Position numbers and translations under genes: made by a program. The notes below the pieces were generated by a model. It did not search any database. It was not told the DNA's origin and worked only from the letters and a program-made list of their open reading frames with translations. A DNA stretch of 64,000 bases from Verrucomicrobiota bacterium (GTDB lineage: Bacteria; Verrucomicrobiota; Verrucomicrobiia; Opitutales; Opitutaceae), in NCBI GenBank assembly GCA_019136515.1, contig JAGVUB010000164.1, forward strand, positions 14,394 to 78,393, written 5' to 3'. Position 1 is the first letter of the stretch, and each line of letters starts with the position of its first letter. Of the stretch, positions 23,542 to 49,557 are shown piece by piece.

Positions 23542-23557
23542 GGTCAAAGAGGTTTGG

Positions 23558-23824: not shown

Positions 23825-24138
23825 GTTGGTTGTTGGTTGATCCACGACTGTGAGAGCTTCCGAGGAGGCTCCGTGCAACCCGCAGTGGAGGCCGGTCGCA
23901 CCGTTCTAGCCCGGTCGCCGGGAGGCGGCCGAACCAGTCGAGGTGGCGTTCCGAACCGCCGGAGCGCCACTAACGCGAAGGGCGTTTATCCAGGCGGGGC
24001 CGCGGTGGAGCAAGCGGTTTTTTCGCCGGGACGCCCGGCCCGACGACGTGGGTGTGGGGTGGTGGGCTCCCGCCTTGCGGCCGCGGGCGGTTTCGGGTCC
24101 CGGTGGTCCGACCTGTGGCGGGGCTCCGCGGCACCGGG

Positions 24139-24519: not shown

Positions 24520-24591
24520 CGATGGGGCTTGCGACGGGCTGTTGGCAGCGGCCGAACGACTTCGTCGTCCCGCTACGTGGATCAGTGCGGG

Positions 24592-26346: not shown

Positions 26347-26364
26347 CTGGTGGGGGGCGGGCGG

Positions 26365-27309
26365 TTAGTCGGCCGAGGCTCGCACATCCAAGGCGTCGCG
26401 CAAGCCGTCTCCCAGGAAATTCAGGGCGAGCAACGTGAGCGAGAACACCGCGCCGGGGCCGAGCAGCAGCCACGTCTGGCTCTCCATCTCGAGCTGGCCG
26501 TCGTAGAGGAGCGTGCCGAGCGAACTCATCGGCGCCTTCACGCCGAGACCGAGAAAACTGAGGAAGGCCTCGAGCAGCATCACGCCCGGGATCGTGAGCG
26601 TGGTGTAGACGATCACCGGCCCGAGGAGATTGGGCAGCAGATGGCGGAAGATGATCCGCCCGTGCCCGAGACCGAGCGTGCGCGCGGCCTCGACAAACTC
26701 CATACGCTTGAGCGACTGCACCTGCCCGCGGACGATGCGCGCCATGGTGAGCCACTCCACCGCGCCGATGGCGGCGAAGAGCACGAGGAGATTCCAGGTC
26801 GGACCAAACTGCAGGCGTTTGGCCAGCGCGTCGCAGAAGACCATCAGCAGGATCACGAACACCGTGAAGGGCAGCGCGTAGACGATGTCGACGATGCGCA
26901 TCATCACCGAGTCGAGCTTGCCGCCGACGTAGCCGGCGACCGCGCCCCATGTCACCCCGATGGTGAGCGAGACCAGCGTGGCGGCGAGGCCCACGGCCAG
27001 CGAGATGCGGCAGCCGAAGAGCGTGCGGGCGAAGACGTCGTGGCCGAGGCGATCGGTGCCGAGCGGATACCGCAGGCTGGGCGGGGAGTACCCGAGGGCG
27101 AGGTCGATGTTGGAGTACGAGAGCCCGAGCAGTCCCGGCAGCACGGCGCAGCCGAGGACGAGTACGAGCAGGAAAAGCCCGGAGGCGACGGCGAGCCGGT
27201 TCTTCCGCAGGCGGCGCCAGGCGTCGCGCCCGAGCGACGAGCCGCGCTCCGCGGCGTCGAGCGGCGGGGGCGTGGGCAGGCGGTCGGGCGAGGGGGAGAG
27301 GCGGAGCAT
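26365..27309 (-). CDS. Peptide/nickel ABC transporter permease (OppC/DppC-like)
   Basis: BPD_transp_1 core (MEFVEAARTLGLGHGRIIFRHLLPN). The start was set at ATG 27309. Confidence 0.85.
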   Translation of the reverse strand: MLRLSPSPDRLPTPPPLDAAERGSSLGRDAWRRLRKNRLAVASGLFLLVLVLGCAVLPGLLGLSYSNIDLALGYSPPSLRYPLGTDRLGHDVFARTLFGCRISLAVGLAATLVSLTIGVTWGAVAGYVGGKLDSVMMRIVDIVYALPFTVFVILLMVFCDALAKRLQFGPTWNLLVLFAAIGAVEWLTMARIVRGQVQSLKRMEFVEAARTLGLGHGRIIFRHLLPNLLGPVIVYTTLTIPGVMLLEAFLSFLGLGVKAPMSSLGTLLYDGQLEMESQTWLLLGPGAVFSLTLLALNFLGDGLRDALDVRASAD

Positions 27310-27452
27310 CGGGGAACTGCGGATGGCGGAATGGAGAAGCGACGGAAGGGACGGAGGCGGGAAATGTGGAAATCTGGAACTCAGCGTAGACGCGCGCCGG
27401 GGAGCGGCCTTGCGGGAATGCAACACTGTGACGCGATCCATCCGAAAATTGA

Positions 27453-27509
27453 CCACGGATCACACGGATGGGCACGGATGACCAGAGAACGATCCGTGTT
27501 CATCCGTGG
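27453..27509. repeat. REP-like imperfect palindromic element built from CACGGAT units
   Basis: CCACGGATCACACGGATGGGCACGGATGACC...GATCCGTGTTCATCCGTGG. It has three direct CACGGAT units and then two inverted ATCCGTG units. It lies in the 395-nt gap between oppB and oppC. Confidence 0.5.
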
Positions 27510-27704
27510 TTTCTGGTTCATGTTGCTTGAGAGGAACGGAGGACGGACTCGGAGGCGACAGAAGGTAACAATGGGAACGAAGAAGTGGGGGCGGAAGCGT
27601 TGCGGTATCAGGGGAGTTCGTTGTGCGGAGAGGGGGCGAGTGTTCGCGGTCTTCTCTTTGTTTTCTTCGTTGTCTTCTGTCGTCCGTGTGCGGTGGAGAG
27701 CTGC

Positions 27705-28706
27705 TCAGTCCTCGAAGCGAAGTTTTGGGATCAACCAGATCTGGACGACGTCGACGGCGAGGTTGAAGAACACGATCGCGCCGGCGTAGAGCACGACGGT
27801 GCCGACCACCAGGGTGTAGTCGCGGTTGAAGGCGGAGGTCACGAACTCCCGGCCCAGGCCGGGGATCTGGAAGATGCGCTCGATCACGAACGAGCCGGTG
27901 AGGATGCCCGCCGCCGCCGGCCCGAGATACGAGATCACGGGCAGCAGGCCGCCGCGCAGCGCGTGGCGCAGGACGATGCGTGGCTCCGAGGCGCCCTTGG
28001 CGCGCGCGGTGCGGATGAAGTCCTGGCCGAGCACCTCCAGCATGCCGCCGCGGGTCAGGCGCGCGACGGCCGCGGCGTAGACGAGGCCGAGCGTGAGGGA
28101 AGGCAGGACACGGTCGAGCGGCTCGTCCCAGCCGGAGGCGTTGAAGCGCTGGAGCCAGACGGCGAAAACGAGGACGAACAACGGCCCGAGGATGAAGGTT
28201 GGCACGCAGATGCCGCAGAGCGAGATGCCGCTGCTCAGGTAGTCGATCCAGGTGTTGCGGCGCACGGCCGCGACCACCCCGAGCGGGATGCCCAGCACGA
28301 GCGCGACCAGCAGCGACCAGGCGCCGAGTTCGAGCGAACAGGGCAGTGCGCCGGCGATGATCTCGTTGACGGTGCGGTTGGCGTATTTGAGCGATGGACC
28401 GAAATCGATGCCGAAGGCGGCCTTGAGGTCGAAGTCCCAACGACCGTCGCGGTCGGTGTCGGCGAAGAGCCGATGCGGGTGGAGCCGTTTCGGGCAGAGG
28501 CCGGCGAGGTAGGCGGCGTACTGGTGCCAGAGCGGTTGATCGAGGCCGTAGTGGGCCTCGAGGTTGCGCTGCACTTCCGGCGGCAGCGATTTCTCGCCGA
28601 GGAACGGTCCGCCCGGCACGAACCGGACCATGAAGAAGGTCGCCGTGACGATGAGGAACATCACGGGGATCGTTTCGAGCAGGCGGCGGAGGACGAAGCG
28701 GAGCAT
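27705..28706 (-). CDS. Peptide/nickel ABC transporter permease (OppB/DppB-like)
   Basis: N-terminus MLRFVLRRLLETIPVMFLIVTATFFMVR plus the conserved FIRTARAKG motif. Confidence 0.85.
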   Translation of the reverse strand: MLRFVLRRLLETIPVMFLIVTATFFMVRFVPGGPFLGEKSLPPEVQRNLEAHYGLDQPLWHQYAAYLAGLCPKRLHPHRLFADTDRDGRWDFDLKAAFGIDFGPSLKYANRTVNEIIAGALPCSLELGAWSLLVALVLGIPLGVVAAVRRNTWIDYLSSGISLCGICVPTFILGPLFVLVFAVWLQRFNASGWDEPLDRVLPSLTLGLVYAAAVARLTRGGMLEVLGQDFIRTARAKGASEPRIVLRHALRGGLLPVISYLGPAAAGILTGSFVIERIFQIPGLGREFVTSAFNRDYTLVVGTVVLYAGAIVFFNLAVDVVQIWLIPKLRFED

Positions 28707-28932
28707 GCCGGCGGTGGAGCGTGGCAATCAAACCGCGCCGAGGCGGAAAATCCAAGGATGGAGTGGGCGGCGGCGCGAGGAGGGGCGCCGCGCGATGGGA
28801 GGTGGTCCCATGAACCAGGGCGCGCGAACGCGCCTCCGCGAAGGAAACGTAAGACTGCGCGGGGGCGCCGTCGTGGAGTGTTTGCACTCGCAACGGCCCG
28901 GTGGGGACGGTTCCATCACCGCCACTTTGCGG

Positions 28933-31809
28933 ATGAGACGAACTCGGCGAATCTCCCTGCGCCTGTTGGGCTGCCTCGCGTTGCTGACTGCCTCGCTTCT
29001 CGGCGTCGCGGCGGCGGGGTGGCTGCCGCCGGTGAACCGTTGGGTTGAACGCCGGTTGTTGGCGGAGCTGCGTGTCCTCGGGGTGGAGGCGGATTTGGCG
29101 CCCGTGCGGGAGTTGTCCTGGCGGCGCGCGGTGATCGGACCGGTGGCCTTGCGGTTGCCCGGGCTGGTGATGCGGGCGGAGGAGGCGCGGGCCGAGTTGG
29201 GCTGGCAGGTGCTGGTGCGGGGCGGCGCTCCGCACGTGGTCCTGCGCGGGCTGGAGTTGGAGGTGGAGTTGGACCGCGTCGCGGAGTTGCGCGCGGCGCT
29301 GCAGCCGCAAAGCGGTGGGTTTCCCTATGGGCGGCTGGATGTCGAACGCTCGCGCGTGGTGCTGCGGCGAGGCGTCCAGCGGCTAGAACTCCCGTTCAGC
29401 GGCTATTTCGACTCGATGGTCGAAGCGTTCCGCGCCGAGGTGTCGGTCGATGCGCCGACGTGCTCGGGCTTGGTGACGGTTCGCGGTGATTTGGCGGACG
29501 GCTCCGTGGAGTTGGCTCTGCGTGACGGACGCGTGCGGCCGGCGGATTGGCAGCCGTTGCTGGCCGGGATGGCACCGGAGAAGCTGGCGGCGGTGCACTT
29601 TGATGAGCGGGCGGAACTGAGGGGAAGCGGTACCGCCACGTTGCGCGATGGTCGTTGGCATGCGGCGACGCTCGTGGCGGAGCTACCGGCTTTCCGGTGG
29701 CAGGAAGGAGCGAATACGGTGGAAGTGGGCGCTGCGAAGCTCACGGCGGGGCTCGCGGACAGCGATGGGTGGCGATGCGAGGTGCGCGCCGGGCTGGCCG
29801 CGTGGACGGCCGGCGACCGACAGGCACGTCTCGAGGCCCCGGTGCTCAGCGTCGAGCGGCACAGCGCGCGGCTGGTCTTTGCCGAGGGTCGAGCCGAGGT
29901 GTCGGGGCTCGAGGTGGAGGGGGCCGGCCAGGTGACGGCGCGCTTTGGCGGTGTGAATGATCCGGTGACGGCGGAGGCCGCCGTGCGGTTCACCGCGGCG
30001 GAGGCGGCCGGGTGGCGTCTGCAGGCGCCGGCGGAGGTGCGGGGAGTATGGAACGGCGACGAATTGAACCTGACGGCGGCGACGATCGGCCTCGTGGGAC
30101 GGGCCCCGTTGCAGTTGGCCGAGGTTGAGGCTGCGATGGGTGGTCTGCGCGACGGTCCCGTCCGGCTGGTGCTGCGCACGCAGGCGGCCGTGGATGCGGT
30201 GCTTTGGTTGGAGGCGGTTGGGGTGGCCGGACGGGTGGAGCCGGCGAACGTGGCGGCGCGCGTGGTCGTGAACGCCCTCCTGGAGCGCGGAAGCGAGGGC
30301 GGGCGTGCAGAGTTTTCCATCCCGGCGCAGCGCCGTACGATTGCCTGGCCCGACGGACGGATGGAAGCCGTGATCGGCGGCGACCTGCTGGTGAATCTCG
30401 ATCGGAACTTCGTGTCGGGTCGCGCGATGGTCGACCTCCGTGAGGTTGCGGCACGAGCAGGTCTTGGGTCGGTGACGGCTCCGAATGCGTCGCTGAGCGT
30501 GCGGTGGCCGCGGATCTGGCTGGAGTCGGTGGCCGGGTGGGCTGCGGCGCCGGTCGGTCGATTCGGCCGTGAACTCCTCTGGGTGGGCGACTATGACGGC
30601 AAACTGGCCGACGCGGTGGTGCGTTATGGCACGGAGTGGCGGGCGAGCGGAGTTGGAGTGCGGTTGAGTTCCCGAGGGGCGGAACTGCACGAGACCGGAG
30701 GACTCGATCTTGGCCTAGCGGTCGCCGAACTGGCGACGCCGGCGGGGGGGCGCGTGGCGGAGTGTCGCGCCGAAGTGGTGGCGGGGTTGGAGGGGGCGGT
30801 GATCCGTGCGGGCTGCGTTATCCCGGAGTTCGGAGTGCGGCCGACCATCGAACAGACGGTGCGCTGGAGCTCCGGGCTCGAAGCGGAGGGCACGTTCGGT
30901 TTCGATCCGGTGGTGTTGAGCGGGAAGGAGCCGTGGCCGCGCTGGTCGCCGCAACTGCGCGGCTGGGAGTTCAGCGGCGGAGTGGGGCTTAGCGGCCGGA
31001 GCCGATACGTAGCCGGGGAGCTGGCGCTTGGGGCGGACCTTCTGTTGAACGAGCTTGCCGCGCGATCCCCCCAGGGCTTCACGGTGGACGGGATCCGTGG
31101 CCGCGTCGCGGTGGTCGGCCCGGCGCCGTGGCGCACCGCGCCGGCGCAGATGCTTGTGTATCGGAACGCCGGTCTCGGCGCGGTGAACCTGTCGGAGGGC
31201 AGCGTGACATTTTCCGGCGAATGGCCCGGGCGGCTCAGCGTCGAGCAATGGGGCACCAACGGGCTCGGGGGGCGGCTGGACGGAACGCCCTTTGCGATCG
31301 ATCCGCGGCGCCCCGAGTTCGGCATGCAGTTGACCTTGAAGGCGGTGAAGCTGGAGGAGCTGCTCCGCCTCTTCGCCGATGTGCCGGCCAGGGCGGAGGG
31401 GCTGGTCGACGGTTCGTTGCCGCTCACTTGGAGTGCGGGGCGGCTTCGGTTGGGCGCGGGCCAGTTCCGGCTCAGCCCCGGCGAGATGGGGCGGGTCCAG
31501 TTCACGCGCGACTTGCAGTTGCTCACTGCGGGCCGCCGGCCCGGAACCCCAACGTACGCCTCGTTGCGGAAAGTCGAACAGTCGATCCAGGTCCTCTTGT
31601 TCAATCGGCTGCAGATCGACACGTATCCGCAGGATGCCCCCGGGCAGTCGTTGCGGGTGCGATTGCAGGGCGCCCCGGCGGGGGGCGAGTTTGCGGTGCC
31701 GGTGAGTCTCGACATCAACGTGAACGCCCCGCTGGAGCACTTCCTCGACTGGGGCACGGCTGGTTGGCAAAATCCACCGGCCGGCCGCGGTGAGGCGACG
31801 AAGCCGTAG
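28933..31809 (+). CDS. ydbH: YdbH-like (AsmA-like superfamily) large envelope protein
   Basis: 958 aa with an N-terminal anchor (ISLRLLGCLALLTASLLGVAAAGW). The C-terminal region resembles the YdbH/DctA-YdbH domain. It is followed by ynbE- and ydbL-like genes, as in the E. coli ydbH-ynbE-ydbL operon. Confidence 0.7.
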   Translation: MRRTRRISLRLLGCLALLTASLLGVAAAGWLPPVNRWVERRLLAELRVLGVEADLAPVRELSWRRAVIGPVALRLPGLVMRAEEARAELGWQVLVRGGAPHVVLRGLELEVELDRVAELRAALQPQSGGFPYGRLDVERSRVVLRRGVQRLELPFSGYFDSMVEAFRAEVSVDAPTCSGLVTVRGDLADGSVELALRDGRVRPADWQPLLAGMAPEKLAAVHFDERAELRGSGTATLRDGRWHAATLVAELPAFRWQEGANTVEVGAAKLTAGLADSDGWRCEVRAGLAAWTAGDRQARLEAPVLSVERHSARLVFAEGRAEVSGLEVEGAGQVTARFGGVNDPVTAEAAVRFTAAEAAGWRLQAPAEVRGVWNGDELNLTAATIGLVGRAPLQLAEVEAAMGGLRDGPVRLVLRTQAAVDAVLWLEAVGVAGRVEPANVAARVVVNALLERGSEGGRAEFSIPAQRRTIAWPDGRMEAVIGGDLLVNLDRNFVSGRAMVDLREVAARAGLGSVTAPNASLSVRWPRIWLESVAGWAAAPVGRFGRELLWVGDYDGKLADAVVRYGTEWRASGVGVRLSSRGAELHETGGLDLGLAVAELATPAGGRVAECRAEVVAGLEGAVIRAGCVIPEFGVRPTIEQTVRWSSGLEAEGTFGFDPVVLSGKEPWPRWSPQLRGWEFSGGVGLSGRSRYVAGELALGADLLLNELAARSPQGFTVDGIRGRVAVVGPAPWRTAPAQMLVYRNAGLGAVNLSEGSVTFSGEWPGRLSVEQWGTNGLGGRLDGTPFAIDPRRPEFGMQLTLKAVKLEELLRLFADVPARAEGLVDGSLPLTWSAGRLRLGAGQFRLSPGEMGRVQFTRDLQLLTAGRRPGTPTYASLRKVEQSIQVLLFNRLQIDTYPQDAPGQSLRVRLQGAPAGGEFAVPVSLDINVNAPLEHFLDWGTAGWQNPPAGRGEATKP

Positions 31810-31859
31810 GCCGCGAAACAACCATTGTCCCGCCCTGTCCGAACCACATTCTGCCAACT

Positions 31860-32066
31860 ATGAACAAACCCCAGTATGCGGCGCTTCTGCTGCTCGTCGC
31901 CGGTGGACTCGCCGGATGCGTCTACACGACGGTCGACGTGAAACCGATCCACATCACGGTGGATGTGAATGTCCGGGTCGAGCAGGCGCTGGAGGATTTC
32001 TTCGGCGACCTCGACCGCAAATCCTCGACCATCGCAACCCCCACCGCCGCTCCCGCCCAGCCATGA
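31860..32066 (+). CDS. ynbE: YnbE-family small lipoprotein
   Basis: 68 aa with lipobox LAGC followed by VKPIHITVDVNVRV, typical of YnbE. It overlaps the next gene by 4 nt. Confidence 0.7.
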   Translation: MNKPQYAALLLLVAGGLAGCVYTTVDVKPIHITVDVNVRVEQALEDFFGDLDRKSSTIATPTAAPAQP

Positions 32067-32440
32067 AAACCGCTCTCCTTTTTTCCCTGATGATCGCCTC
32101 TCTCCTTGGTTTTGCTGTACCGGGGGCTTGGGCGCAGGACGCCAATCTGAAACAGCGGATGGAGCAAAGGCTGACTACACTCGACGATCTGCGCCTGCGC
32201 CAAGTCGTGGGCGAGAACAACGCCGGTTACCTCGAGCTGCGCGGCATCGCCACGCCGGACGAGGAAGCGGTGGTGGCGGCGGAGAACGCCGACCGCGCGG
32301 CGGTGTACGAGATGATCGCGCGCCGCAGCGAGACGACAAAAGAGACGGTTGGCCGCGCCCGTGCCAAGACGATCGCAGCCGCGAGTGCCCGCGGGGTGCT
32401 GGTGCAGGACGCGAATGGCGGTTGGGCGCCAAAACGCTAG
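32063..32440 (+). CDS. ydbL: YdbL-like (DUF1318) periplasmic protein
   Basis: Signal peptide, then GENNAGYLELRG...ENADRAAVYEMIA, which is DUF1318-like. Confidence 0.7.
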   Translation: MKTALLFSLMIASLLGFAVPGAWAQDANLKQRMEQRLTTLDDLRLRQVVGENNAGYLELRGIATPDEEAVVAAENADRAAVYEMIARRSETTKETVGRARAKTIAAASARGVLVQDANGGWAPKR

Positions 32441-32542
32441 TCGCGGCGACGATGGCGCCCGCAGTGCAGGCAGGGGGGGGCGGAGCCCACGCCCACCGCA
32501 TTCAATTCCGGCCCACGATCAAGAGTGGTCCGCGCCTTGAAA

Positions 32543-32741
32543 TCAGTCCCGGCGGGGGAAGGTTGAAACCTGGCTGCGGATACGCGCGATGGTTGCCGTG
32601 GGCAGGTAACCTCCGAATGCCATCGTGGGCATGACCAAGGCGCGCGGGCCGAGAATCGTGCCGGGCTGAAGCACGGCGTTGCAGCCGACCTCGGCCTTGT
32701 CGCCGAGGATGGCGCCGAACTTGCGCAGGCCGGTGTCGAAC
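32543..32741 (-). pseudogene. Orphan 3' fragment (last 65 codons) of a hexapeptide-repeat gene, duplicating 40686..40884
   Basis: It translates to FDTGLRKFGAILGDKAEVGCNAVLQPGTILGPRALVMPTMAFGGYLPTATIARIRSQVSTFPRRD. That matches 60 of 65 residues of the C-terminus of the 268-aa gene at 40686..41492. Homology stops abruptly upstream. Confidence 0.8.
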
Positions 32742-32979
32742 CGGCCCGGATTCATTGCTCCAGCCGTTCGAGTTCTTCTGCTGCGAGTGGAATCGGCATG
32801 CTGTGGCGGGTCATGCCACCAGCCTACTGGCCCGGCGCATATGAGCACCTATTTGTGGGACTTACGGATCCTCGCGTATAGGACTGACGGCCGATGGTTG
32901 GGCGGGACCGCTGGGCCCACCGAGCGAACGGACGGCCCGGCGGTCCGTCCGCTCGCTCGGTCAGTCTATTGCGCGAGGC

Positions 32980-35376
32980 TCAATAGTGCCGCTTAATGTA
33001 CTTCTCAATGGCGGTCGTCATCTTGTCATTGGCCCATTCACCGTAGCCGCCTTCGAGCCCTTTCTCCCATCCCCACTCGGCTACTGGATCGATCTCTCGT
33101 TTATTTACAGCCTCGCTGACTGCCTCGCCAAGATCAACGACGTTGGCGAACTTGTTCAATTTTGTGTATAGCCCACTCTCTGAAATCTTTGTCGAAATCG
33201 CCATCCCCTCGAGAGCCATCTTTGCGGGACGGAAAATGCGGGTCTCTGAAGATGCCATGCCTAGCACTTTGCTCACCACCGGCCACGCTGTGGATTTGAT
33301 CAATCCACTTGCGCCGGGAATTGCGCCGAGAATAGCGATTCCTTGATCTATCTGTGATAGCTTTTCACCGGTGAAAGCATCATAGCCATAACTCGCCTCA
33401 TAGATCGCGATCGCGGAGCCAAGAAACGGGACTGCTCGAACAAAGGTGCTCACTACGGTGCTGAAATACGCGTTATCGACGGGGAGCCATTTGCGCAGGA
33501 GGTCGTTAATACATGGCTTGGTCAGCACACTCTCGACGTCCGATTTGACTTCATTGAGCACCTCGTCGCTCTCGTGGCTAACAGTCGATGACGCGGAGCC
33601 GCCGGCAGTGACCGGGTACGACGAACTTGGTTGGCATGGCTCACGCGTGGCTAGTATCCATCGGCTCGGATCGTACTGCTGTTCCTTATTGGTGGGATTG
33701 ATGATCTGAATCCGTCCGCGACTGAGGCTGTCCTGTTTGCCGCGGCCGATCAGCCCGTCGTCAAGAATAGTGAACTCACCCGGGCCGCTGTCGGGTTTTG
33801 GCTTCGATGTTTTCTGGACTGTTGGGGCGGTATTGGTAGCGGGCGGCTTGCGAGTGATGGGGCGAGGGGTGTCGCCGTAGATGTCATTAGGTTCATCGGA
33901 GCCGTAAATGTCATCCCCGCGTTGCCCCTTGCCTCCTTGATTCTTGGTCTGGCCGCCCTTGTGATGGTCCTCGCAGTTGTTGACGTCGCCCCCTCCTAGG
34001 GTGGGATTCTTGACGGTCGGCTTCGACGTCCGTCCGCCGCCGGCCAACGTGAGCTTCGCGGGGTTGGACTTGAGGGCCACGTCTCCACTGAAAGCGACGA
34101 GGCGGTAGGTCCCGACGGTGTCGCGCCCGGCCTTGATCGTCAGCGAATTGGTATTCGCGTCCTTGATGTCCTTGTCATTGAACTGCCACTGGTAGCGAGG
34201 TGCTGGAACCTCATCGGCCAACTGTGCGGCAAACGTGGCCATCGAGCCATTCGCCACGCATTGATCCTCTGGTTGCTGCACAAACTCCGCGACCGGGATC
34301 GGGTTGGTCAACCTCCGGAGGATTTCCTCGGTGTTGGCGGGATCGAAGGGGTTGGCACCCTTGTGGTCGATGGTGACGAAATCCAAGTGGTGCTGCAGCA
34401 GGTTGTTTTTCGCGGCATCGAGGGTAAGCAGTTCGGGCCCATCGCTGGCCGCGGCACCGGTAGCGCCAGCCGCCGCCACCGGTCGCCTCTCCGGGTGTTG
34501 GGCTAGTTCAACGTATTCCGCGTACTTGCGTGTGCCATCTGGAAGCGCTGCATTCAAAATCGCAATCTGCGCTGGCGTCGGGTTGATCGGCGGCGGCTTG
34601 AGGTCAGCCCCGCGGATGCCCCACAGCAGCGTATGCACCAAGGGGCGAGACTCCGGGTGTGATACCTCGTAGTTGAGTATCCCACTGTAGAGCGCCTCTG
34701 CCTCTTTGGGGATCAGGATGCTCGCGGGATAGAACGCCACCGACTGGTTGTGCCCGACGGCCTTATGCTCTCGGTTGGGCATAGTGCCCACGGCGGGGGC
34801 ATCTACCTGCAGACAGTGGGGCGAGAAGTCGTAGGTGACCGCCGACATTGCAGGCACGGTGATCTTCAGTTTCTCCGCCATTGCGGCCGCCTCGGATGCC
34901 CGCAGGAAGGGCAACAACGCCTCAACCATCTCGTTGAGGTCGTCGTAAGTGACGACATCTTTGGCCTTCAGCCGCGCCAAGACCTCCTTCAGATGCTTTT
35001 TCTGCTCTTCCCCCTTCGGGGTTCCCGGCTCGAAGCGCGGCAGCGTCGGGTTAACTCCGCGGGCCATGGGGGCTCGCTCGATGCCCTTGGTGTGCGCGAG
35101 GAACGCCGCCTTGGCGTCCGTTGGCCGGGATGGCTTCGTGCTGAAACAGAAATCCCGCGAATTCGCCCAATACCCAGGGTTGGTCGCTGCGTTGTTCTTG
35201 GTGTTGGCGTCGATGGCGTGTCGTACCGCGGCCTCGTAGACCTCTTGAAACCGGGCTTTGACATCGAAGACCGGCGCGGCGCCTTCTGCGGAAGTGTTAG
35301 TGGAGTAAGGGTCTTGTGCCAAGAGGGCTGAGACAGTCAGCGACCCCAGCATGGTGAGAAGGCGGAGTAATTTCAT
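32980..35376 (-). CDS. Secreted multidomain protein with an Ig-like repeat and a pre-toxin TG (PT-TG)-like domain plus a ~105-aa C-terminal module (polymorphic-toxin-like)
   Basis: Signal peptide MKLLRLLTMLGSLTVSALLAQ. An Ig-like segment (YQWQFNDKDIKDANTNSLTIK...YRLVAF). AVPFLGSAIAIYEASYGYDAFTGEKLSQIDQGIAILGAIPG matches the PT-TG pattern (xPxxG...G.DxxTGEKLS...iP). This gene has the lowest GC in the window. Confidence 0.6.
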   Translation of the reverse strand: MKLLRLLTMLGSLTVSALLAQDPYSTNTSAEGAAPVFDVKARFQEVYEAAVRHAIDANTKNNAATNPGYWANSRDFCFSTKPSRPTDAKAAFLAHTKGIERAPMARGVNPTLPRFEPGTPKGEEQKKHLKEVLARLKAKDVVTYDDLNEMVEALLPFLRASEAAAMAEKLKITVPAMSAVTYDFSPHCLQVDAPAVGTMPNREHKAVGHNQSVAFYPASILIPKEAEALYSGILNYEVSHPESRPLVHTLLWGIRGADLKPPPINPTPAQIAILNAALPDGTRKYAEYVELAQHPERRPVAAAGATGAAASDGPELLTLDAAKNNLLQHHLDFVTIDHKGANPFDPANTEEILRRLTNPIPVAEFVQQPEDQCVANGSMATFAAQLADEVPAPRYQWQFNDKDIKDANTNSLTIKAGRDTVGTYRLVAFSGDVALKSNPAKLTLAGGGRTSKPTVKNPTLGGGDVNNCEDHHKGGQTKNQGGKGQRGDDIYGSDEPNDIYGDTPRPITRKPPATNTAPTVQKTSKPKPDSGPGEFTILDDGLIGRGKQDSLSRGRIQIINPTNKEQQYDPSRWILATREPCQPSSSYPVTAGGSASSTVSHESDEVLNEVKSDVESVLTKPCINDLLRKWLPVDNAYFSTVVSTFVRAVPFLGSAIAIYEASYGYDAFTGEKLSQIDQGIAILGAIPGASGLIKSTAWPVVSKVLGMASSETRIFRPAKMALEGMAISTKISESGLYTKLNKFANVVDLGEAVSEAVNKREIDPVAEWGWEKGLEGGYGEWANDKMTTAIEKYIKRHY

Positions 35377-35460
35377 GGGGTGGAAGAATAGTAGATGAAG
35401 AAGTGTGGATAAAAAAGCCCCGCGCACTGCTGTACGCGGGGCTAGATGCATTAGCTAGGA

Positions 35461-36066
35461 TTACCAGCTGATGCCGCCTTTTCTGGACGTTTTGGCGATG
35501 GCTTCCTCGGCCTCCCAGATGGCCAGGCCGGACCGGACGTCCGTCAGGCTGAGCTGGAAGGTGTAGGTGATCAGCGTCTCGCGGCCCTGCTTGACGCGGG
35601 ATTCCTGGATTTTGCCCGAGAGTGTGAAGTCGGGCATCCGGGTTTCCTGCTTCTCGCCGCCCATGAACTGGGCGTATTCGGCAGCTTCTTTGGCGAGCGG
35701 GTCCTCGGCCTTGCCTCCGAGTCCGACGGTGGTCGTGGTGAGGATCTTGCCGCTCTGGTTGAGCGCGACGCGGATCTTCTTCGTCAACGAGTCGATATCG
35801 ATCTGCATCGTCGTGTCGTTGCGGACTCGGCTGATGGCCATGATCGCGGGCGGGTTCTCGATGCGCGCCAAGACATCCGAGCTGAGGAGGTTCGAGATCA
35901 GCTTCTCGGCGGCCTCGGACCATTCGCTCGGGCTGATCTGCGTGGCGTTGACGACTTTCTTCTGCTTGGGGTCGACTTGGCGGACCGTATCGGCGCGTGC
36001 CGGAAGCGGGGCGAAGACCAGCGCGGTGGCGCCGACAAGCATGGAGAGGATGAGACGGGTTTTCAT
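35461..36066 (-). CDS. LpoB-like (COG3417) periplasmic protein
   Basis: 201 aa with a signal peptide. The overall pattern (PAIMAISRVRNDT...DIDSLTKKIRVALNQSGK...FTLSGKI...YTFQLSLTDVRSGLAIWE) is LpoB/COG3417-like. Confidence 0.6.
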   Translation of the reverse strand: MKTRLILSMLVGATALVFAPLPARADTVRQVDPKQKKVVNATQISPSEWSEAAEKLISNLLSSDVLARIENPPAIMAISRVRNDTTMQIDIDSLTKKIRVALNQSGKILTTTTVGLGGKAEDPLAKEAAEYAQFMGGEKQETRMPDFTLSGKIQESRVKQGRETLITYTFQLSLTDVRSGLAIWEAEEAIAKTSRKGGISW

Positions 36067-36075
36067 CGGAGGAGA

Positions 36076-36492
36076 TTATTCGTGGTCGAGCATGAACTTG
36101 ATGATGAAGTCGACGGCCTTGGGGGAGGTGGCGGTCGCCGAGATGTGAGTCTCCTCACGGCCTTCGAGGTGGAAGGTCTTCCAGCCGTCGATGGGCGAGG
36201 GGATGGCCATGCCATCCTTGCCGATCCACTCGACGCGGTAGCGGTAGTCCTTGTAGTGGCGATGGAGGTTGCGGACCTTCATCTCGATCTTGAGGAGGTC
36301 TCCGGAGACGTAGGTCTGGGCGATGCCCGAGACCTCGATGGATTCGGCGAGCCAACCGTCGAAGACGAGGCGGCGATCCGGGACGTAGGCGGCGCGTGTC
36401 TGGGGCGATGTGCTTTCGATGGAGTTGACCGTGCTGCACCCCGAGATGAGGGCGGCGCCTGCGGCCAGCGCGAGAATGAGAGATTTCTTCAT
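36076..36492 (-). CDS. YcfL-family (DUF1425) lipoprotein
   Basis: 138 aa with lipobox ISGC. LKIEMKVRNLHRHYKDYRYRVEWIGKDGM resembles YcfL. It is adjacent to the lpoB-like gene, as in enterobacterial ycfL-lpoB. Confidence 0.6.
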   Translation of the reverse strand: MKKSLILALAAGAALISGCSTVNSIESTSPQTRAAYVPDRRLVFDGWLAESIEVSGIAQTYVSGDLLKIEMKVRNLHRHYKDYRYRVEWIGKDGMAIPSPIDGWKTFHLEGREETHISATATSPKAVDFIIKFMLDHE

Positions 36493-36503
36493 GGTAGAGG
36501 ATG

Positions 36504-38048
36504 TCACTTGAGGACGGTTTGGGATATAAGGGCGGGGAGTCCGGGGGCGATACTCTTTACGTAGACGAGGTTCACCTTGCCCGGTTCGATCACGATGGTC
36601 TGCGGGGCGGAGCCTGCAGCGATGGTGATGGTGCGGTCCTTGGGAGTCTGGAAGCGGGCGTACTGGAATTGCTTGGGAAGGGTGGTCCAGCTGCGGGTGT
36701 CGGCGATCGTGGTGGTGGCAGTGTAGATCGAGGTTGCCAGCATGCCGATCAGCTGAGCGGTGCCGCCTTGGTCCTTCAGCTGCCTGTTGACCTCGTACTG
36801 GATGAGGCCTTTGACGCCTGCGGAGATGATCGACTTGGTGAGGACGGCCACCCACTCATTCTTGAACTCGCGTGCGATGACGCTGTCCATGCTGCACAGA
36901 AGCTGAGTGTCGAGCGTCTGCCCCTCGATGGCGATGCTGGCTGCCGGAACGAAGTCGGGAACGCGCTTGAGGATGGGAAGGGCGCACTGGGTGTACTGCA
37001 CCTTGTCGGTGACCAGGAACAGCGGGATCGGGATCTGGATCTGGTCGAGGTACGGGGCCGAGCCGGTTTCGAAGATCACATAGGTGAGCCCATCCGGCTT
37101 CTTGCCGTAGGCGAGTCCTTCGGCGAGCGCTAGGTCTTCCTTGATGAAGGAGGACTCGGGTGCCATGGCCGCGACGCGCTCCATGGACTTGCGCGCGTGT
37201 TCCATGTCGGAGGCGTCTTCGCCCCGGGTCATGAAGAACAGGCCATCCACGAACACCGCGAACGGGTTCACATAGACTTCATAGGGGCGCACATCGGTTT
37301 CGAGATCGGTGTCGATCTCCTTGAGTGCGTTGGCCACGCCTTCATCCTGCATCGCCTTTTCGGCATCGTAGCTGGCGGTCTTGCCTTGTTCATCGGCGAC
37401 TTTGCCTTCCTTGGCTTCTGCGGCCTTGGCCTGCGCCTCTTCGATGCGCTTGGCATTGGCATCGACGGCATCGCGCTGGTGTTGGAGCACCTTGTTGAGC
37501 GCAACGCGGGCATTGTCGGGCTCGCCGAGCTTGAGGTAGTTCAGCGCCTGGTAGGTCTCCAGCATGATGCGGTCGGAGGCGCGGCCGCGGTAGGACGTGT
37601 TGGCTTGGTTGGTCAGGATCGCACCGGCTTCGGATGCGACCTTGGCCTTGGCCTGCTCGTCATAGGAGATGATCCGGTCCGCGGCCCAGTTGAAGGACTC
37701 GATGCTCTTCTTGGTCATCTCGACATCGTAGGCGTCGCCCGGTGCTGCGCCGGCCGGCCCGAGGGCCATGGCTGTCGTGTTGGTTGGGGCGACGGGCGGG
37801 AGGTTCTCGAGTGCGCGGGCGCGGTAAACGGCACCCTGCTCGAGACTCCAGACCACGGTGCTCTGGTTGTTGGCGTTCTTCTCGGCCTTCTTGTCGACCT
37901 CGGCGGAGGCTTCGGCGAGCTGCCCCGCTTTCCACGCGGTGCGGAAGTCGGAAGACTGGGTCGTGTAGGTGCTGCAACCGGATAGCAGTCCGATCGCGAC
38001 GAGGCCGCAGGGGAGCGCGACCCGGGAGAATGTGACGGGCGATTTCAT
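36504..38048 (-). CDS. Large lipoprotein, COG3014-like (uncharacterised)
   Basis: 514 aa with lipobox LLSGCST and helical-repeat-looking content. My recollection is that COG3014 proteins co-occur with LpoB/YcfL homologues. That is inference. Confidence 0.5.
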   Translation of the reverse strand: MKSPVTFSRVALPCGLVAIGLLSGCSTYTTQSSDFRTAWKAGQLAEASAEVDKKAEKNANNQSTVVWSLEQGAVYRARALENLPPVAPTNTTAMALGPAGAAPGDAYDVEMTKKSIESFNWAADRIISYDEQAKAKVASEAGAILTNQANTSYRGRASDRIMLETYQALNYLKLGEPDNARVALNKVLQHQRDAVDANAKRIEEAQAKAAEAKEGKVADEQGKTASYDAEKAMQDEGVANALKEIDTDLETDVRPYEVYVNPFAVFVDGLFFMTRGEDASDMEHARKSMERVAAMAPESSFIKEDLALAEGLAYGKKPDGLTYVIFETGSAPYLDQIQIPIPLFLVTDKVQYTQCALPILKRVPDFVPAASIAIEGQTLDTQLLCSMDSVIAREFKNEWVAVLTKSIISAGVKGLIQYEVNRQLKDQGGTAQLIGMLATSIYTATTTIADTRSWTTLPKQFQYARFQTPKDRTITIAAGSAPQTIVIEPGKVNLVYVKSIAPGLPALISQTVLK

Positions 38049-38068
38049 CGTTCTGGTCGAGTGTGGGG

Positions 38069-38947
38069 TTAGCGGATCGCGCCGACGGGCAGGCGCAGGA
38101 GGGCGCCCTTGTCGACTCCGGTGTCGCTGATGATCTCGGCTTGCGAGGTCTTGGGATTGACGCGGGTGATGCGAACCTGGCCGACCATGAGTTCCTCACG
38201 GCCGAGGGAGGCGCCGGTGTCGGGATCAGTCATCTCTTCGCCGAGCGCGAAGACTTCCCAGACTTGACCGATCGCGACCCCGCTGCCTTCGCCGCGGCTG
38301 ATGGTGACCATGCGGTCGATCTTCGAGACGATTCGTGCCGGATAGATCACATCGGCGACGCGCGCGGCAACGGCCTCGGCGGCCATGAAGGTGACCTTCT
38401 GGAGGAGGGCATCGCTGAGGTCGCCGTTCTTGCTGGAGTTGGCGGCATTCTCCGTCTGCTCCTTCAACTCGATCGGAATGTTGGTGGATTCGATGAGCTT
38501 GCCGGTCTGGCCGTCGTAGATCTTGCCGACGAGGCCGAGGCGGATGACGCGCCAGCTGGCAGACTTGCCGATCGCGGCGAATTCGCGGGTCTCGGCGTAA
38601 TCCTGGAAATCACCGACGGTGGTCACGAGGAGGTAGTCGACACCGCTGACCTGGAAGTTGCCGGCGCTGAAGTCGGCCTCCTTCAGGATCGAGGCCATGT
38701 CCGAGCGTGCAATCACTTCGAACTTACGGGTGTTCTGCACGCGATCCATGAGCTGGCTGTCGAGGGACTGGACGACGCGGTCGAGGGAGTTCTTGCGGCC
38801 TGCAGCAGTGGTGCTTTCGACCAGCGAGCCGATCGGGCGCACATCGGAGATGGCGATTTTCTTGAGACCGGTGGCGGTAGTCTGCGCGGATAGGCCGGAG
38901 GCGATGGCCAGGCCGGCGGAGAACAGGATGAGGGAGCGAAGTTTCAT
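38069..38947 (-). CDS. CsgG-like periplasmic/OM protein
   Basis: Signal peptide, then KKIAISDV...FEVIARSDMASILKE...GVDYLLVTTVGDF...IRLGLVGKIYDGQTGKLIES. This follows the CsgG-family pattern. Confidence 0.5.
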   Translation of the reverse strand: MKLRSLILFSAGLAIASGLSAQTTATGLKKIAISDVRPIGSLVESTTAAGRKNSLDRVVQSLDSQLMDRVQNTRKFEVIARSDMASILKEADFSAGNFQVSGVDYLLVTTVGDFQDYAETREFAAIGKSASWRVIRLGLVGKIYDGQTGKLIESTNIPIELKEQTENAANSSKNGDLSDALLQKVTFMAAEAVAARVADVIYPARIVSKIDRMVTISRGEGSGVAIGQVWEVFALGEEMTDPDTGASLGREELMVGQVRITRVNPKTSQAEIISDTGVDKGALLRLPVGAIR

Positions 38948-38996
38948 CTGAATGCGAAATGGATGGTGTGGTAGTTGATTGTGAGGGAACGCGACA

Positions 38997-40247
38997 TCAG
39001 TCGCCGAAGATGGAGTTGTGGCGGATGTTGATCTGCGGGGCATCCTTGGTGTCCACCTTGAACCCGCTCTGGCGGAGCATCTGGGCCTGGCCTTCGAGGA
39101 CCTTGACCTGGGCGTCGGTGAGCTTGGCGCCGTTCTTGAGCTCGTTCATGAACGCGGTGGCGTCCTTCCAGCGGGCGATCGTGGCGTCGGTCATCTGCAT
39201 CGCGACGGTGAGGGTCTGGCCGTTGACGGCGTTGATGGTGCGCTCCCAGGTGCGGTAGCCTTCGCGGGTGAGGCGTAGCTTGCTGAATCCGGGGCGGACC
39301 TGGACGGTGCCCGGAGCGGTACCGACGGCCACGCCGTCGACCTCGACGGTCACCTGAAGGGGCGAGACGCTCAGCTTGCTCTCGCCGATGCGGATGGTGT
39401 GGTCGTCGTCGATGCGGACATCGGGGACGAACAGATCGGCGGCATCGATGTTGATCGTGAGATTGACCAACGCGCCGGCTGCGCTGACGGGGGCGATGCG
39501 ACGCTGGGCGATCTTGGCGCTGAGGCTGTCGGCCAGCTGGACGGCTGCCTGATCGAGCAGGTCGTTGTAGATGTCGTCGTTGGCTTCGGCCAGGTTCTCG
39601 GTCTGGCGGGTGCCGACGGTGACCTTGATCGCGTCGGCGGTGATGCTGCCGCCGGTGTTGCCGTCGAGGATCTTGTAGGTGACCCGCATCGTGGTGTCCT
39701 TGGTGACGGTGTTGACCCCGTAGGCGTTCACGGCGCGCTCCTTCGAACCGACGCTGGCGACGGAGGCGATGAGAAGGTAGTCGGCGCCGAGACCTTGGGA
39801 GAGACGCAGGACCGAGCTTTGCTCGGTGAGTTTGGCGTCGAGGCTGTCGGCCGGGCGGGGGGCGGAGGCGACGGCGGGATCGAAGGCGCGCATGGCATCG
39901 GCGATCACTTCGCGGCTGAGGACCTGCATCCCCTTGTCGGTCACGCGGGCGGTCACGAGGTCTTCGAGCGCCATCATCTTGGAGTCGAAGGCTTCTCCGG
40001 CGCGGTTCGAGATGAAGATGGCGGCCTTGTAGGGTCCGCTTTGGCGGACGGCCTGTTCCTGCCGGACCTTCGAGATCGTTGTCGTTTCGGTGACCTGCCG
40101 GCCATCTTCGGTGGTGTAGGAGCGGCTCTCCACCTGTGTCGGCATGGTTGTCGTTGTTGTATCGACTTGTGTGGTCTGCGCCTGGACGGACAGAAGGGCG
40201 GCGCAGCCGCACAGCGTTGCAAAGCAGAGCTTGAATCGGGTGAGCAT
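38997..40247 (-). CDS. CsgG-like domain protein with a C-terminal PEGA domain
   Basis: Signal/lipobox-like N-terminus (ATLCGCAALLSVQA), a CsgG-like core (YKAAIFISN...GADYLLIASV...VTYKILDGNTGGSI), and a PEGA motif region (VEVDGVAVGTAP...LRLTREGYRTWE). Confidence 0.55.
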   Translation of the reverse strand: MLTRFKLCFATLCGCAALLSVQAQTTQVDTTTTTMPTQVESRSYTTEDGRQVTETTTISKVRQEQAVRQSGPYKAAIFISNRAGEAFDSKMMALEDLVTARVTDKGMQVLSREVIADAMRAFDPAVASAPRPADSLDAKLTEQSSVLRLSQGLGADYLLIASVASVGSKERAVNAYGVNTVTKDTTMRVTYKILDGNTGGSITADAIKVTVGTRQTENLAEANDDIYNDLLDQAAVQLADSLSAKIAQRRIAPVSAAGALVNLTINIDAADLFVPDVRIDDDHTIRIGESKLSVSPLQVTVEVDGVAVGTAPGTVQVRPGFSKLRLTREGYRTWERTINAVNGQTLTVAMQMTDATIARWKDATAFMNELKNGAKLTDAQVKVLEGQAQMLRQSGFKVDTKDAPQINIRHNSIFGD

Positions 40248-40685
40248 GGTGACGGAAACGTTGTTGGACTTCCTAAGGAAAGGGAGTGTGGACTGCAGCC
40301 GAGCTAGCATGCGGCAGATGGAAGCGTCTTCCACCTGCGGCGGGGGTTGATGGAGCCCACGAATCGAAGAACCATAACGGGGAGACGCGGCAGACGATGC
40401 ATCCAGTTACCGGGATATGGGCCATATGGTGGCGTAGTTCGTGCGAAGCAGTTCGTCCCCTCCACCCTGGGGGTGTTTGCCGTATGGTAATCTCATGGGA
40501 TTTCCAGACCCTATCGGTAATGCCGTATTGATTCTTTACGAGGAAAAACTGGCCTCCACAGGCGGGGCCGGTCGTGCACGGAAGCGGGGCCGAGGACCGG
40601 TTCGCTTGCGTGTCGGGAGACGGAATATCGCCTGCCAGAGTTCCACAGACTTGTCGCCGCGGAGGCCCTCGGCAGGGCAGCGGCC

Positions 40686-41492
40686 TCAATCGCGGCGTGG
40701 AAAGGTTGAGACCTGCTCGCGGACGCGGGCGATGGTGGCGGGCGGGAGGTAGCCGCCGAAGGCCATCGTGGGCATGACCAGCGCGCGTGGGCCGAGGAGC
40801 GTGCCGGGCTGGAGGACGGCGTTGCAGCCGACCTCGGCCTTGTCGCCGAGGATGGCGCCGAACTTGCGCAGGCCGGTGTCGAACGTGCCGGTGGGCAGGC
40901 GGAGGACGACGGCCTTCTGGTCGAGGCGGAGATTCGAGAGCACGGCGCCGGCGCCGAGGTGGGCGCCGTTGCCGAGGATGGAGTCTCCGACGTAGGGGCG
41001 GTGGGGGACCTGGACGCCGTCCATCAGCAGCGAGTTCTTGAGCTCGGCGTTGTGGCCGACGGTGCACCGGGCGCCGACGATCACGTTGCCGCGCAGGAAG
41101 CAACCCGGCAGGAGCTTGGATTCGGGGCCGATCCAGACCGGGCCGATGAGCGTCGCGGTGTGCGGCAGTTGCGCGGTCGGGTGGATGAAAACCGGACCCT
41201 CAGCGTGGATGCCGGGGGGGAGTGCCTGGCTACCGGCGAAATCAGCGGCGGCGAGGGCGGGCCCGATTTGCTTGAGCCATTCCCATGGGTGCGCTCCCGG
41301 GGAAAAGGAGGCGGCGAAAGAGGCGAGGGAGTGGGGGAGGCTGAAGAAATCGGCGGCTTTCACGGCAGCCGAGCGTGGAAGGGATGCGCGGGTCTGACGA
41401 GAAGGAAGCGCTGTGGGACCAGCGAATGGGCGTGGTGAGGTAGCGGGTGCAGCCGGGCGCAGTTCGTTGGGGGGAGCGACGGCGGAGGCCAC
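40686..41492 (-). CDS. Left-handed beta-helix (hexapeptide-repeat) transferase-like protein
   Basis: Repeated [LIV]G-x4 hexapeptides (IGPESKLLPGCFLRGNVIVGARCTVGHNAELKNSLL...). The start is uncertain; an alternative GTG lies at 41363. Confidence 0.7.
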   Translation of the reverse strand: MASAVAPPNELRPAAPATSPRPFAGPTALPSRQTRASLPRSAAVKAADFFSLPHSLASFAASFSPGAHPWEWLKQIGPALAAADFAGSQALPPGIHAEGPVFIHPTAQLPHTATLIGPVWIGPESKLLPGCFLRGNVIVGARCTVGHNAELKNSLLMDGVQVPHRPYVGDSILGNGAHLGAGAVLSNLRLDQKAVVLRLPTGTFDTGLRKFGAILGDKAEVGCNAVLQPGTLLGPRALVMPTMAFGGYLPPATIARVREQVSTFPRRD

Positions 41493-48435: not shown

Positions 48436-49557
48436 ATGCGCAAAACACCCGTCGAAAAGGAGCAAACGCAACCGGAGCAGAGCCCAGATGAGCCTCTGTT
48501 TCAGAAAGTCGGCGAATGCCTGTACCGGCGCCAATCATCTCAGGTGTATTACGCCCTCGTGAAGCGTGCCGGCAAGCAGCATCGAAAGTCGCTCAAGACT
48601 ACGGATCGGAAGCTGGCGGAGCGCCTGTTGGCCGATTACCGCCGCGAGATTGGCGCGGTGAAGCCGACAGTGGGAGGGAGAAGCGTTACCTTGGGCGAAG
48701 TCGCCAAGCGGTGGCTTGAGGCCAAGAAGCCCTTCCTGAAGCCGATGTCATTCAAGCGTTGTGAGACGAGCGTGGGCCAGCTCTGCCGCTTGTTGGGGAC
48801 GGTCGCGGTTCGGAAGATCTCGCCGACGATGCTTGAGGACTGGGCGAGCAAGCGGATTAAGGAAGGGCGCAGCCCGAAGGGGCTCAGCGCATCGACCTAC
48901 AACAACGAGCGCGACACACTCATCGCCATCCTCGACCAGGCGAAGCGGGACGGCCACTTGCTCGATAACGTCGCCGAGGCGCTCCCGCGCCGAAAAGGAG
49001 AGAAGAAAGCGAAGGTCATCCCGTCCAAGGAGGACTTCGCGAAGTTGGTCCAGGTGTTGCGGGCGTGCGACCATCGCTCGCAGGCCGCGGCCGATTTGGT
49101 TGAACTGGCGGCGTACACCGGCGCGCGACTTGGCGAAGTGACGACGATGCGCTGGCGCGACATCCTCTTTGAGAAAGGCCGCTTCGTCATCACGGGCGGA
49201 GAGAAGGGGACGAAGAACAGCGAGGCGCGGGAGCGGCCTCTATTTCCGGCGGCCCGCGCTCTGCTGGAGCGCATGCGCGAACGGGACAAGCCCCAGCCGG
49301 ACGATTTGATCATTAGCATCACCTCTGCGAAGCGCGCCCTGACCTCCGCATGCAAGAAGGCCGGGATTCCGCGGCTCACCCATCACGTCATGCGCCATTT
49401 CTTTGTCAGTAACGCCATTGAGGCCGGTGTGGATTTCAAGACCATCGCGGATTGGATAGGACACAAGGACGGCGGCGTACTTGTCGCCAAGACCTACGGA
49501 CACCTGCGCGATGCTCACTCTTTTGAGATGGCAAAGAAGATGACGTTCTCGGCGTAA
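48436..49557 (+). CDS. int: Tyrosine-type site-specific integrase
   Basis: C-terminal catalytic region with ...GARLGEV..., HHVMRHFFVS, and GHKDGGVLVAKTYGHL (R-H-R-Y type signature). It is adjacent to the tRNA. Confidence 0.92.
   Translation: MRKTPVEKEQTQPEQSPDEPLFQKVGECLYRRQSSQVYYALVKRAGKQHRKSLKTTDRKLAERLLADYRREIGAVKPTVGGRSVTLGEVAKRWLEAKKPFLKPMSFKRCETSVGQLCRLLGTVAVRKISPTMLEDWASKRIKEGRSPKGLSASTYNNERDTLIAILDQAKRDGHLLDNVAEALPRRKGEKKAKVIPSKEDFAKLVQVLRACDHRSQAAADLVELAAYTGARLGEVTTMRWRDILFEKGRFVITGGEKGTKNSEARERPLFPAARALLERMRERDKPQPDDLIISITSAKRALTSACKKAGIPRLTHHVMRHFFVSNAIEAGVDFKTIADWIGHKDGGVLVAKTYGHLRDAHSFEMAKKMTFSA

Follow-up and report, generated by a model that had tools for sequence, protein, structure and literature searches.

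An accessory island beside a hexapeptide-repeat gene of a Verrucomicrobiota bacterium, probably gained by homology-facilitated illegitimate recombination

Results

The island and the empty site

The stretch of DNA analysed here, referred to as the window, comprises 64,000 nt from the draft genome (4.1 Mb) of a Verrucomicrobiota bacterium of the Opitutaceae (assembly GCA_019136515.1, contig JAGVUB010000164.1, positions 14,394 to 78,393 of the forward strand). All coordinates are window positions, and other genomes, contigs, and loci are given by handles (G, C, and L numbers). The window contains an island between a ydbL-like gene and a gene for a left-handed-beta-helix ("hexapeptide") protein, the 3' end of which recurs as an orphan on the far side of the island. 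The ydbL-like gene (31790–32440, plus strand; DUF1318, Pfam PF07027, 4.6e-18) is, by blastn synteny, the last gene of the left backbone. It is followed by a spacer of 102 bp between its stop codon and that of the orphan (32441–32542), the orphan itself (32543–32741, minus strand; codons 204–268 and the stop), the 5'-end remnant of an insertion sequence (IS) of the IS630 family (32742–32861, minus), a palindromic repeat, a gene for a polymorphic-toxin-like protein, a five-gene operon, and the intact hexapeptide gene (40686–41492, minus). The product of the latter, of 268 codons, resembles the acetyltransferase half of GlmU-type enzymes. An earlier note, made by a model from the letters alone, described the island as a lower-GC insertion left by site-specific integration into the 3' end of a gene.

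The insertion between ydbL and the hexapeptide gene is confirmed by comparison with relatives. In four genomes of the same genus (G014, G011, G003, and G013), ydbH-ydbL faces the hexapeptide gene across approximately 100–210 bp, which is the empty site that the earlier note had expected; in G007 the gap is larger (~670 bp). None of these five genomes has the island genes or a second gene fragment. G014 and G011 are collinear with the window over ~21158–32438 and, past the island, from 40685 on through the gene for the TonB-dependent receptor, and the nucleotide homology to relatives ends one base past the hexapeptide stop codon. The 102-bp spacer agrees in size with the empty-site spacers, the sequences of which are not conserved between species.

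The composition of the 7.9-kb insert is atypical of the genome. Its GC content, lower as the earlier note had said, is 0.617 versus a genome mean of 0.680 (S. D. 0.022), a value within the bottom 1.6% of 8-kb windows; by tetranucleotide distance, the insert ranks in the top 1.8%. Moreover, blastn against the same genome found no other copy of the IS subtype to which the remnant belongs, so that the IS appears to have come with the island. A foreign origin of the island is therefore suggested by both its composition and its IS.

The duplicated gene end

A MAFFT alignment and blastn against the whole genome reproduced the gene-end repeat at the coordinates given in the earlier note. The segments 32543–32741 and 40686–40884 form a direct repeat of 199 bp with 86.9% identity, made up of a block of 69 bp (32673–32741 and 40816–40884; 69/69 identical) and an arm in which 104/130 positions are identical. 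On one side, similarity ends at 32741/40884, as sharply as had been reported; on the other, it extends barely beyond the stop codon. Only two copies of the repeat exist in the assembly, and the block has no third copy.

Of the 26 differences between the copies, 20, 5, and 1 fall on codon positions 3, 1, and 2, respectively, and only 5 of the 65 residues are altered. From this pattern it appears that both copies diverged as functional genes in different lineages, and such a signature of purifying selection argues against the orphan being a local duplicate in decay. It most probably represents the displaced 3' end of the recipient's own hexapeptide gene, as the earlier note had supposed. In the partition trees described below, it lies on a long terminal branch, as does the native 5' part of the intact gene, and its orientation and its distance from ydbL resemble the native arrangement. 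Because the spacers are not conserved, branch lengths and position carry this assignment; spacer homology was considered as a test of the native copy and discarded, the ydbL-hexapeptide spacers being unalignable between species. A tandem or paralogue origin of the fragment was also rejected: the gene is mostly single-copy, the fragment lies outside any second paralogue, and a second complete paralogue, which the earlier note had named as an observation that would speak against its reading, is not seen among the two copies in the assembly.

The orphan is preceded by an in-frame ATG (32756–32754), giving a predicted ORF of 70 codons (32543–32756, minus; MNPGR+FDTGL...RRD). In the sequence ATGA, this start codon overlaps the TGA that lies in the frame of the decayed transposase.

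A slowly evolving block in a mosaic gene

Of 41 genomes searched across the order, 40 have the hexapeptide gene, mostly in single copy, and sub-megabase genomes are among them. Its orthologs in the subclade show 0–2 differences in 68 positions of the block and 18–25 in 127 positions of the arm; the block of the window is matched at 68/68 positions in G014 and G011, and at 67/68 in G005, G013, and G002. Since the same slow block and ~15–20% diverged arm are seen among ordinary orthologs, no crossover is needed to account for the identical core. The 69-bp "core", which had been taken for the crossover site of an integration, thus appears from these comparisons to be a stretch of the gene under ordinary interspecies conservation.

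Between 40816 and 40883 (and 32673 and 32740), there is nearly no synonymous change among the window, G005, G014, G011, G013, and G002, and the codons adjoining this 68-bp stretch differ by 14–20%. Recent exchange, or constraint at the level of the nucleic acid, may possibly account for this near-invariance.

The intact gene is a mosaic. Its divergence from G005 is 14–20% from the start of the alignable region to 41082, and 3.5% from there to the stop codon. The two parts, 41082–41492 and 40686–41081 (both minus), are hereafter called the native 5' part and the imported 3' part, the latter having 14 mismatches to G005 in ~396 bp. These mismatches are evenly spread, with 7/197 at 41081–40885 and 7/199 within the repeat, so that there is no discontinuity at 40884. 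In a tree of the 3' partition, the window groups with G005 as its sister (support 0.96, distance 0.046), and in that of the 5' partition, the window lies on a long branch at a distance of 0.27 from G005. When a maximum-chi-square test for a breakpoint was run against G005, the N-terminus, which aligns poorly, dominated the outcome (column 201), and the mismatch coordinates and partition trees were therefore used to place the breakpoint. They point to a homologous crossover between ~40993 and 41103, probably near 41082, and to an imported tract of ~400 bp at the 3' end of the gene. The recipient's version of codons ~137–203 is absent at the locus and elsewhere in the assembly.

The G005-like tract overruns the repeat edge at 40884 by ~197 bp. 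Because it crosses this boundary unbroken, an element carrying only the 199-bp gene end would not fit the data. Hence, of the proposal that an element had supplied a replacement 3' end, the imported end itself is upheld, and its supply by an element-borne piece of the length of the repeat is not, the tract being ~200 bp too long.

The left junction lies inside an insertion sequence

Directly inside the left junction is the 120-bp IS630-family remnant, which the earlier note had overlooked. Within it are a portion of the terminal repeat, the leader, and ~24 codons from the start of the transposase gene, the frame of which contains a TGA. At the junction the element is broken internally, and at its terminus conservation does not reach the outermost ~10 bp. 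Identity to related copies is 88%, over 32732–32861 for the copy in G014 and over 32753–32861 for those in G013, and several of the related copies in these two genomes sit at contig ends, as repeats do. The IS copies share a terminus ...CCTATTTGTGGGACACTACACTA, followed by an ORF beginning MTRHS...EELERLEQGIRAGSTPQQVVLR, and intact copies terminate in ...CACTACACTAG, in line with the IS630 family. Elements of this family insert at TA within CTAG. The remnant is assigned to the family because a relative on contig C34 of the same genome (70%) encodes a transposase with DDE_3 (8e-21) and N-terminal HTH_23 domains. It shares with the family the terminal repeat, the leader, and the first 24 codons; as it lacks the catalytic domain and the outermost ~10 bp, it is a fragment rather than a member element, and the junction with the gene lies inside its transposase ORF.

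In gene orientation, the IS reads ...ATCCGCGCCG GTTCGAC GCCTCAGCAAGTCG, the window ...ATCCGGGCCG GTTCGAC ACCGGCCTGCGCAAG, and the intact gene ...CCCACCGGCAC GTTCGAC ACCGGCCTGCGCAAG. The heptamer GTTCGAC (32735–32741, minus; GTCGAAC on the plus strand) is common to the hexapeptide gene (40878–40884) and the IS630-family transposase gene, and at this point of the three-way alignment the window switches from IS to gene. The switch point is ~130 nt inside the IS, at the transposase codons G-S-T within the conserved motif IRAGSTPQQVVLR. Because the heptamer lies inside the codons for this motif, the junction is an internal point of the IS and not an IS end. The chance of a microhomology of at least 7 bp at a random IS-gene junction is 0.0008. 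The left join would thus be illegitimate and microhomology-mediated, and neither an att boundary nor a transposition end.

Insertion by transposition, or as a composite transposon, was rejected: a junction internal to the transposase ORF was not made by transposition, and blastn against the genome found no second IS end at the other edge of the island.

Other members of this IS group occur in the same genome and in G014. The C34 element (C34:1–~1150) is full-length, with a 370-aa DDE_3 transposase, terminal inverted repeats, and CTAG ends, at the start of its contig, and a further related terminus occurs at C199:4269–4304 of the same genome. The G014 copy (L073, G014:C56 5940–6545) is interrupted ~160 bp in by a unit of ~305 bp in two tandem copies.

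Genes and spacers of the island

The five genes between 35461 and 40334 are all on the minus strand and form an operon, which is followed by the toxin-like gene. The first encodes a PEGA-domain protein (38997–40334; PF08308, 1e-9) and has an uncertain start. It is followed by genes for a CsgG-like lipoprotein (38069–39043; PF03783, 8.9e-5), a conserved protein of 514 aa with no Pfam or NCBIfam match (36504–38048), a DUF1425/YcfL-like protein (36076–36480; PF07233, 2e-14, and tblastn), and, last, an LpoB-like lipoprotein (35461–36066; PF13036, 4e-23; TIGR02722, 4e-25). The start of the DUF1425/YcfL-like gene is uncertain as well, the listed ORF (36076–36855) overlapping the upstream gene. The toxin-like gene (32980–35451, minus) encodes a predicted secreted protein of 823 aa with a PT-TG (pre-toxin) domain (PF14449, 7.7e-10). 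Its GC content (0.587) is the lowest in the island, and it has no close relative within the genus. Neither the PT-TG protein nor the LpoB-like protein gave a hit in exact-protein look-ups. Pfam and NCBIfam detected no integrase, transposase, or excisionase domain in the six island proteins, in agreement with what had been noted of the DNA between the repeats.

No immunity-type ORF follows the PT-TG gene in 32742–32980. The place expected for an immunity gene is filled by the IS remnant and by a palindromic repeat resembling repetitive extragenic palindromes (REP) and miniature inverted-repeat transposable elements (MITE), which overlaps the PT-TG stop codon (32863–32986). This repeat has terminal inverted repeats CCTCGCGTATAGGACTGAC ... 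GTCAGTCTATTGCGCGAGG and a predicted fold of -75.5 kcal/mol (z = -6.7). By blastn, relatives with ~79–94% identity occur in the same genome on contigs C80, C166, C192, and C194, and twice on C201.

Between the operon and the hexapeptide stop codon lies a spacer of ~350 bp (40335–40685), which is presumably donor DNA; the hexapeptide-operon spacer, searched for as 441 bp, has no homolog in 401 genomes of the family. Scans for consensus promoters and terminators found nothing at either edge of the island.

The operon and the site in other genomes

With the 514-aa protein as its marker, the operon is a common accessory unit, found in 79 of 301 genomes of the family and in 23 of 63 genera. In G012, G009, and others, the LpoB-like gene is kept with it. 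The two operon copies of G012 and the one of G009 are at unrelated loci and are ~77% identical in nucleotide sequence to 35458–40247, with the homology stopping at ~40247. Those of G012 are complete, with all five genes, and lie at different loci (L049 on G012:C10 and L050 on G012:C16). The left flank of the C10 copy is conserved, without an operon, on contig C11 of the present genome (85–89% identity).

Among the 75 operon-bearing genomes searched, 71 have a hexapeptide match, and in these the operon sits at unrelated loci. Together with the 41 relatives searched, approximately 115 related genomes were screened; none has an orphan fragment, and in none does the operon lie beside the hexapeptide gene, the operon and the gene being on different contigs or 0.5–2.5 Mb apart. 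The six-gene cluster at the same position without a duplicated fragment, an arrangement that would have spoken against the earlier reading, is accordingly not seen in any genome examined.

The position downstream of the hexapeptide gene is variable. In G005, a different set of genes of ~7 kb, without a duplicated fragment, occupies the place between ydbL and the hexapeptide gene (L022, G005:C8 6970–14052). It includes an aminotransferase, a GH2 protein with an F5/8 type C domain, an acyltransferase_3 protein, and a SAM hydroxide adenosyltransferase. The aminotransferase is 92% identical to 13671–14834 of the window, and so the gene order around the site has been rearranged within the genus. 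G002, G012, G001, G004, and G006 have yet other neighbours downstream of the hexapeptide gene.

Discussion

Origin of the island

The island was probably gained by homology-facilitated illegitimate recombination (HFIR), that is, by one homologous crossover and one illegitimate join. HFIR is characterised by homology at one end, microhomology of 3–10 bp at the other, and a deletion that accompanies the insertion, and has been described in Acinetobacter baylyi, Streptococcus pneumoniae, Pseudomonas stutzeri, and E. coli conjugation (PMC3240628). At the present locus, all three features may be seen: the mismatch density against G005 falls from 14–20% to 3.5% near 41082, with different trees on the two sides; the 7-bp GTTCGAC stands at the switch from IS to gene; and the orphan starts at codon 204, with the recipient codons ~137–203 gone.

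Under this reading, linear DNA from an unsampled member of the same genus would have been taken in by hybrid recombination. The donor piece would have consisted of the last ~400 bp of the hexapeptide gene, the 350-bp spacer, the five-gene envelope-lipoprotein operon, the PT-TG gene, the REP-like repeat, and the start of the IS630-family element. One end would have been settled by a homologous crossover inside the conserved hexapeptide gene near 41082, and the other by an illegitimate join at GTTCGAC, linking the IS transposase gene to codon 203/204 of the recipient's hexapeptide gene. Approximately 8.3 kb would thereby have been brought in, and ~110–200 bp of the recipient gene between the two joins lost; the recipient's last 65 codons would have been pushed 8 kb downstream and kept as the orphan beside ydbL. 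The insertion, the mosaic gene, the IS remnant, and the microhomology junction are shown by the present comparisons, whereas the origin of both joins in a single event, the donor, and the route by which its DNA entered are inferred.

So viewed, the event is of a known kind, of which it is a clear natural example. It shares with HFIR the homologous anchor in a conserved gene, the 7-bp microhomology join, the deletion, and the lack of an element-encoded recombinase. It differs from laboratory HFIR in being a natural footprint read from sequence, in its size (~8 kb versus an average of ~1 kb), and in that the recipient deletion is only ~110–200 bp. A parallel is offered by the Rhs, contact-dependent inhibition (CDI), and type VI secretion system (T6SS) loci, at which orphaned 3' regions and immunity genes arise by displacement, and for which HFIR has been proposed (Kirchberger et al. 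2017, PMC5361080). There too the incoming module is anchored on conserved upstream sequence, and the resident 3' part is left as an orphan downstream. Unlike at those loci, the anchoring gene here is of a housekeeping type (GlmU-C-like) and does not encode a toxin, the toxin-like gene is carried as cargo at the opposite end of the insert, and there is a single displacement and no array.

Several points weigh against an origin by HFIR. The donor arrangement (hexapeptide gene, spacer, operon, toxin-like gene, and full IS) was not found in the 401 family genomes or by the exact-protein look-ups, and the donor side of the junction was for this reason reconstructed from the 88%-identical G014 copy of the IS. 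That copy is the only one of high identity to cover the position of the junction; in a second, which is 70% identical, the motif is confirmed but AGCGAC stands in place of the heptamer. The insert, at ~8 kb, is far above the ~1 kb that is usual for HFIR in the laboratory. The G005-like tract could stem from a separate recombination event, and the decision as to which gene end is native depends on branch lengths and position, the spacers being unalignable. Finally, the assembly is a draft of 202 contigs that is 94% complete.

Alternative explanations

The best surviving alternative is an origin in two steps, which is considered unlikely, though not negligibly so. A circularised donor molecule would have been integrated by a single RecA-dependent (Campbell-type) crossover that duplicated a longer piece of the gene, and a later microhomology deletion, between the interior of the IS and the downstream gene copy, would have trimmed the duplicate to 199 bp. 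The same end structure, with a mosaic intact gene and a GTTCGAC junction, would result, and single crossovers of circularised DNA are far commoner than HFIR in E. coli (PMC3240628). Against this, two rare events and a donor circle are needed, the sequence demands no extra step, and no trace is left of a longer duplicate.

It is improbable that the orphan is foreign, i.e., a passenger fragment at the end of an island that was inserted just past the stop codon of a wholly native hexapeptide gene, the G005-like 3' half of which would be due to an unrelated earlier exchange. The arm of the orphan is slightly farther from all relatives (97–104/130) than is usual among relatives, and spacer homology cannot place the orphan. 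Such an origin would, however, require two unexplained illegitimate joins and an independent tract ending exactly at the insertion point, and the orphan has the native distance and orientation to ydbL and a long branch like that of the native 5' part.

Still less probable is the site-specific integration proposed in the earlier note, by an element whose attP carried the last 199 bp of the gene and whose tyrosine or serine recombinase was later lost or acted in trans. The layout does resemble that of icd/icdC and e14, in that the 3' end of an intact gene has been replaced, an orphan has been displaced, and the direct repeats have an identical stretch at the gene-internal edge (PMC13626634), and the genome has seven PF00589 hits, of which one is ~8 kb away beside a tRNA-Arg. 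Three expectations of such integration are contradicted, namely a recombinase, an imported tract equal to the repeat, and recurrent use of the site. The tract instead continues past the repeat for ~200 bp at the same divergence, and none of the ~115 related genomes has an orphan fragment or the operon beside the gene. In addition, the identical block is accounted for by ordinary interspecies conservation and has no further copy in the genome, homology breaks off at a microhomology join within the truncated transposase gene, and the cargo, an ordinary chromosomal operon, lacks mobility genes. According to Hill et al. (1989), cited in PMC13626634, e14 and phage 21 integrate into the 3' end of icd, leaving the icdC pseudogene; e14 has its own integrase and excises, whereas the present island has no recombinase, its substituted tract is longer than the repeat, and the edge of its repeat joins a broken IS. 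What remains of the earlier proposal is therefore the insertion, the imported 3' end, and the displaced orphan, and not the att mechanism, the edge being set by GTTCGAC; nor does a decayed or trans-mobilised integrative island agree with an edge inside a transposase gene, an overlong tract, and no recurrence in relatives.

A link to the island with the nearest PF00589 hit (window ~49045–49515, beside the tRNA-Arg) was considered and rejected: that island is separate, 8 kb away, and bounded by a different repeat, and no third copy of the 69-bp block exists.

Least probable of all is an assembly artefact, in which related strains occurring together would have been fused into one contig at the conserved part of the hexapeptide gene. 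A 202-contig draft and a conserved block long enough to mislead an assembler would allow it, but such a misjoin would give a chimeric gene rather than an orphan directly beside an IS remnant, G014 and G011 are the best-matching relatives for both flanks, and the junction of IS and hexapeptide gene has a specific microhomology structure.

Significance

For the prediction of genomic islands, the locus holds a caution: a gene-end duplicate with an identical core and a diverged arm can mimic attL and attR when the core merely evolves slowly. It is rare for a natural HFIR footprint to be documented with both of its ends mapped, and the present one is several times the size of the laboratory product. 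It would offer a view, at the level of the base pair, of how a chromosomal operon and a toxin-like gene may enter a genome without the machinery of a mobile element, with a conserved core gene as the source of homology at one join and a 7-bp match sufficing for the other.

It may be suggested, tentatively and with low confidence, that the conserved 3' half of the hexapeptide gene is a recurrent homologous anchor in this genus, an integrase-free hotspot at which accessory blocks of at least 8 kb are captured by HFIR. If so, such an anchor would explain both the species-specific DNA downstream of the hexapeptide gene and the exchange of its 3' half between lineages.

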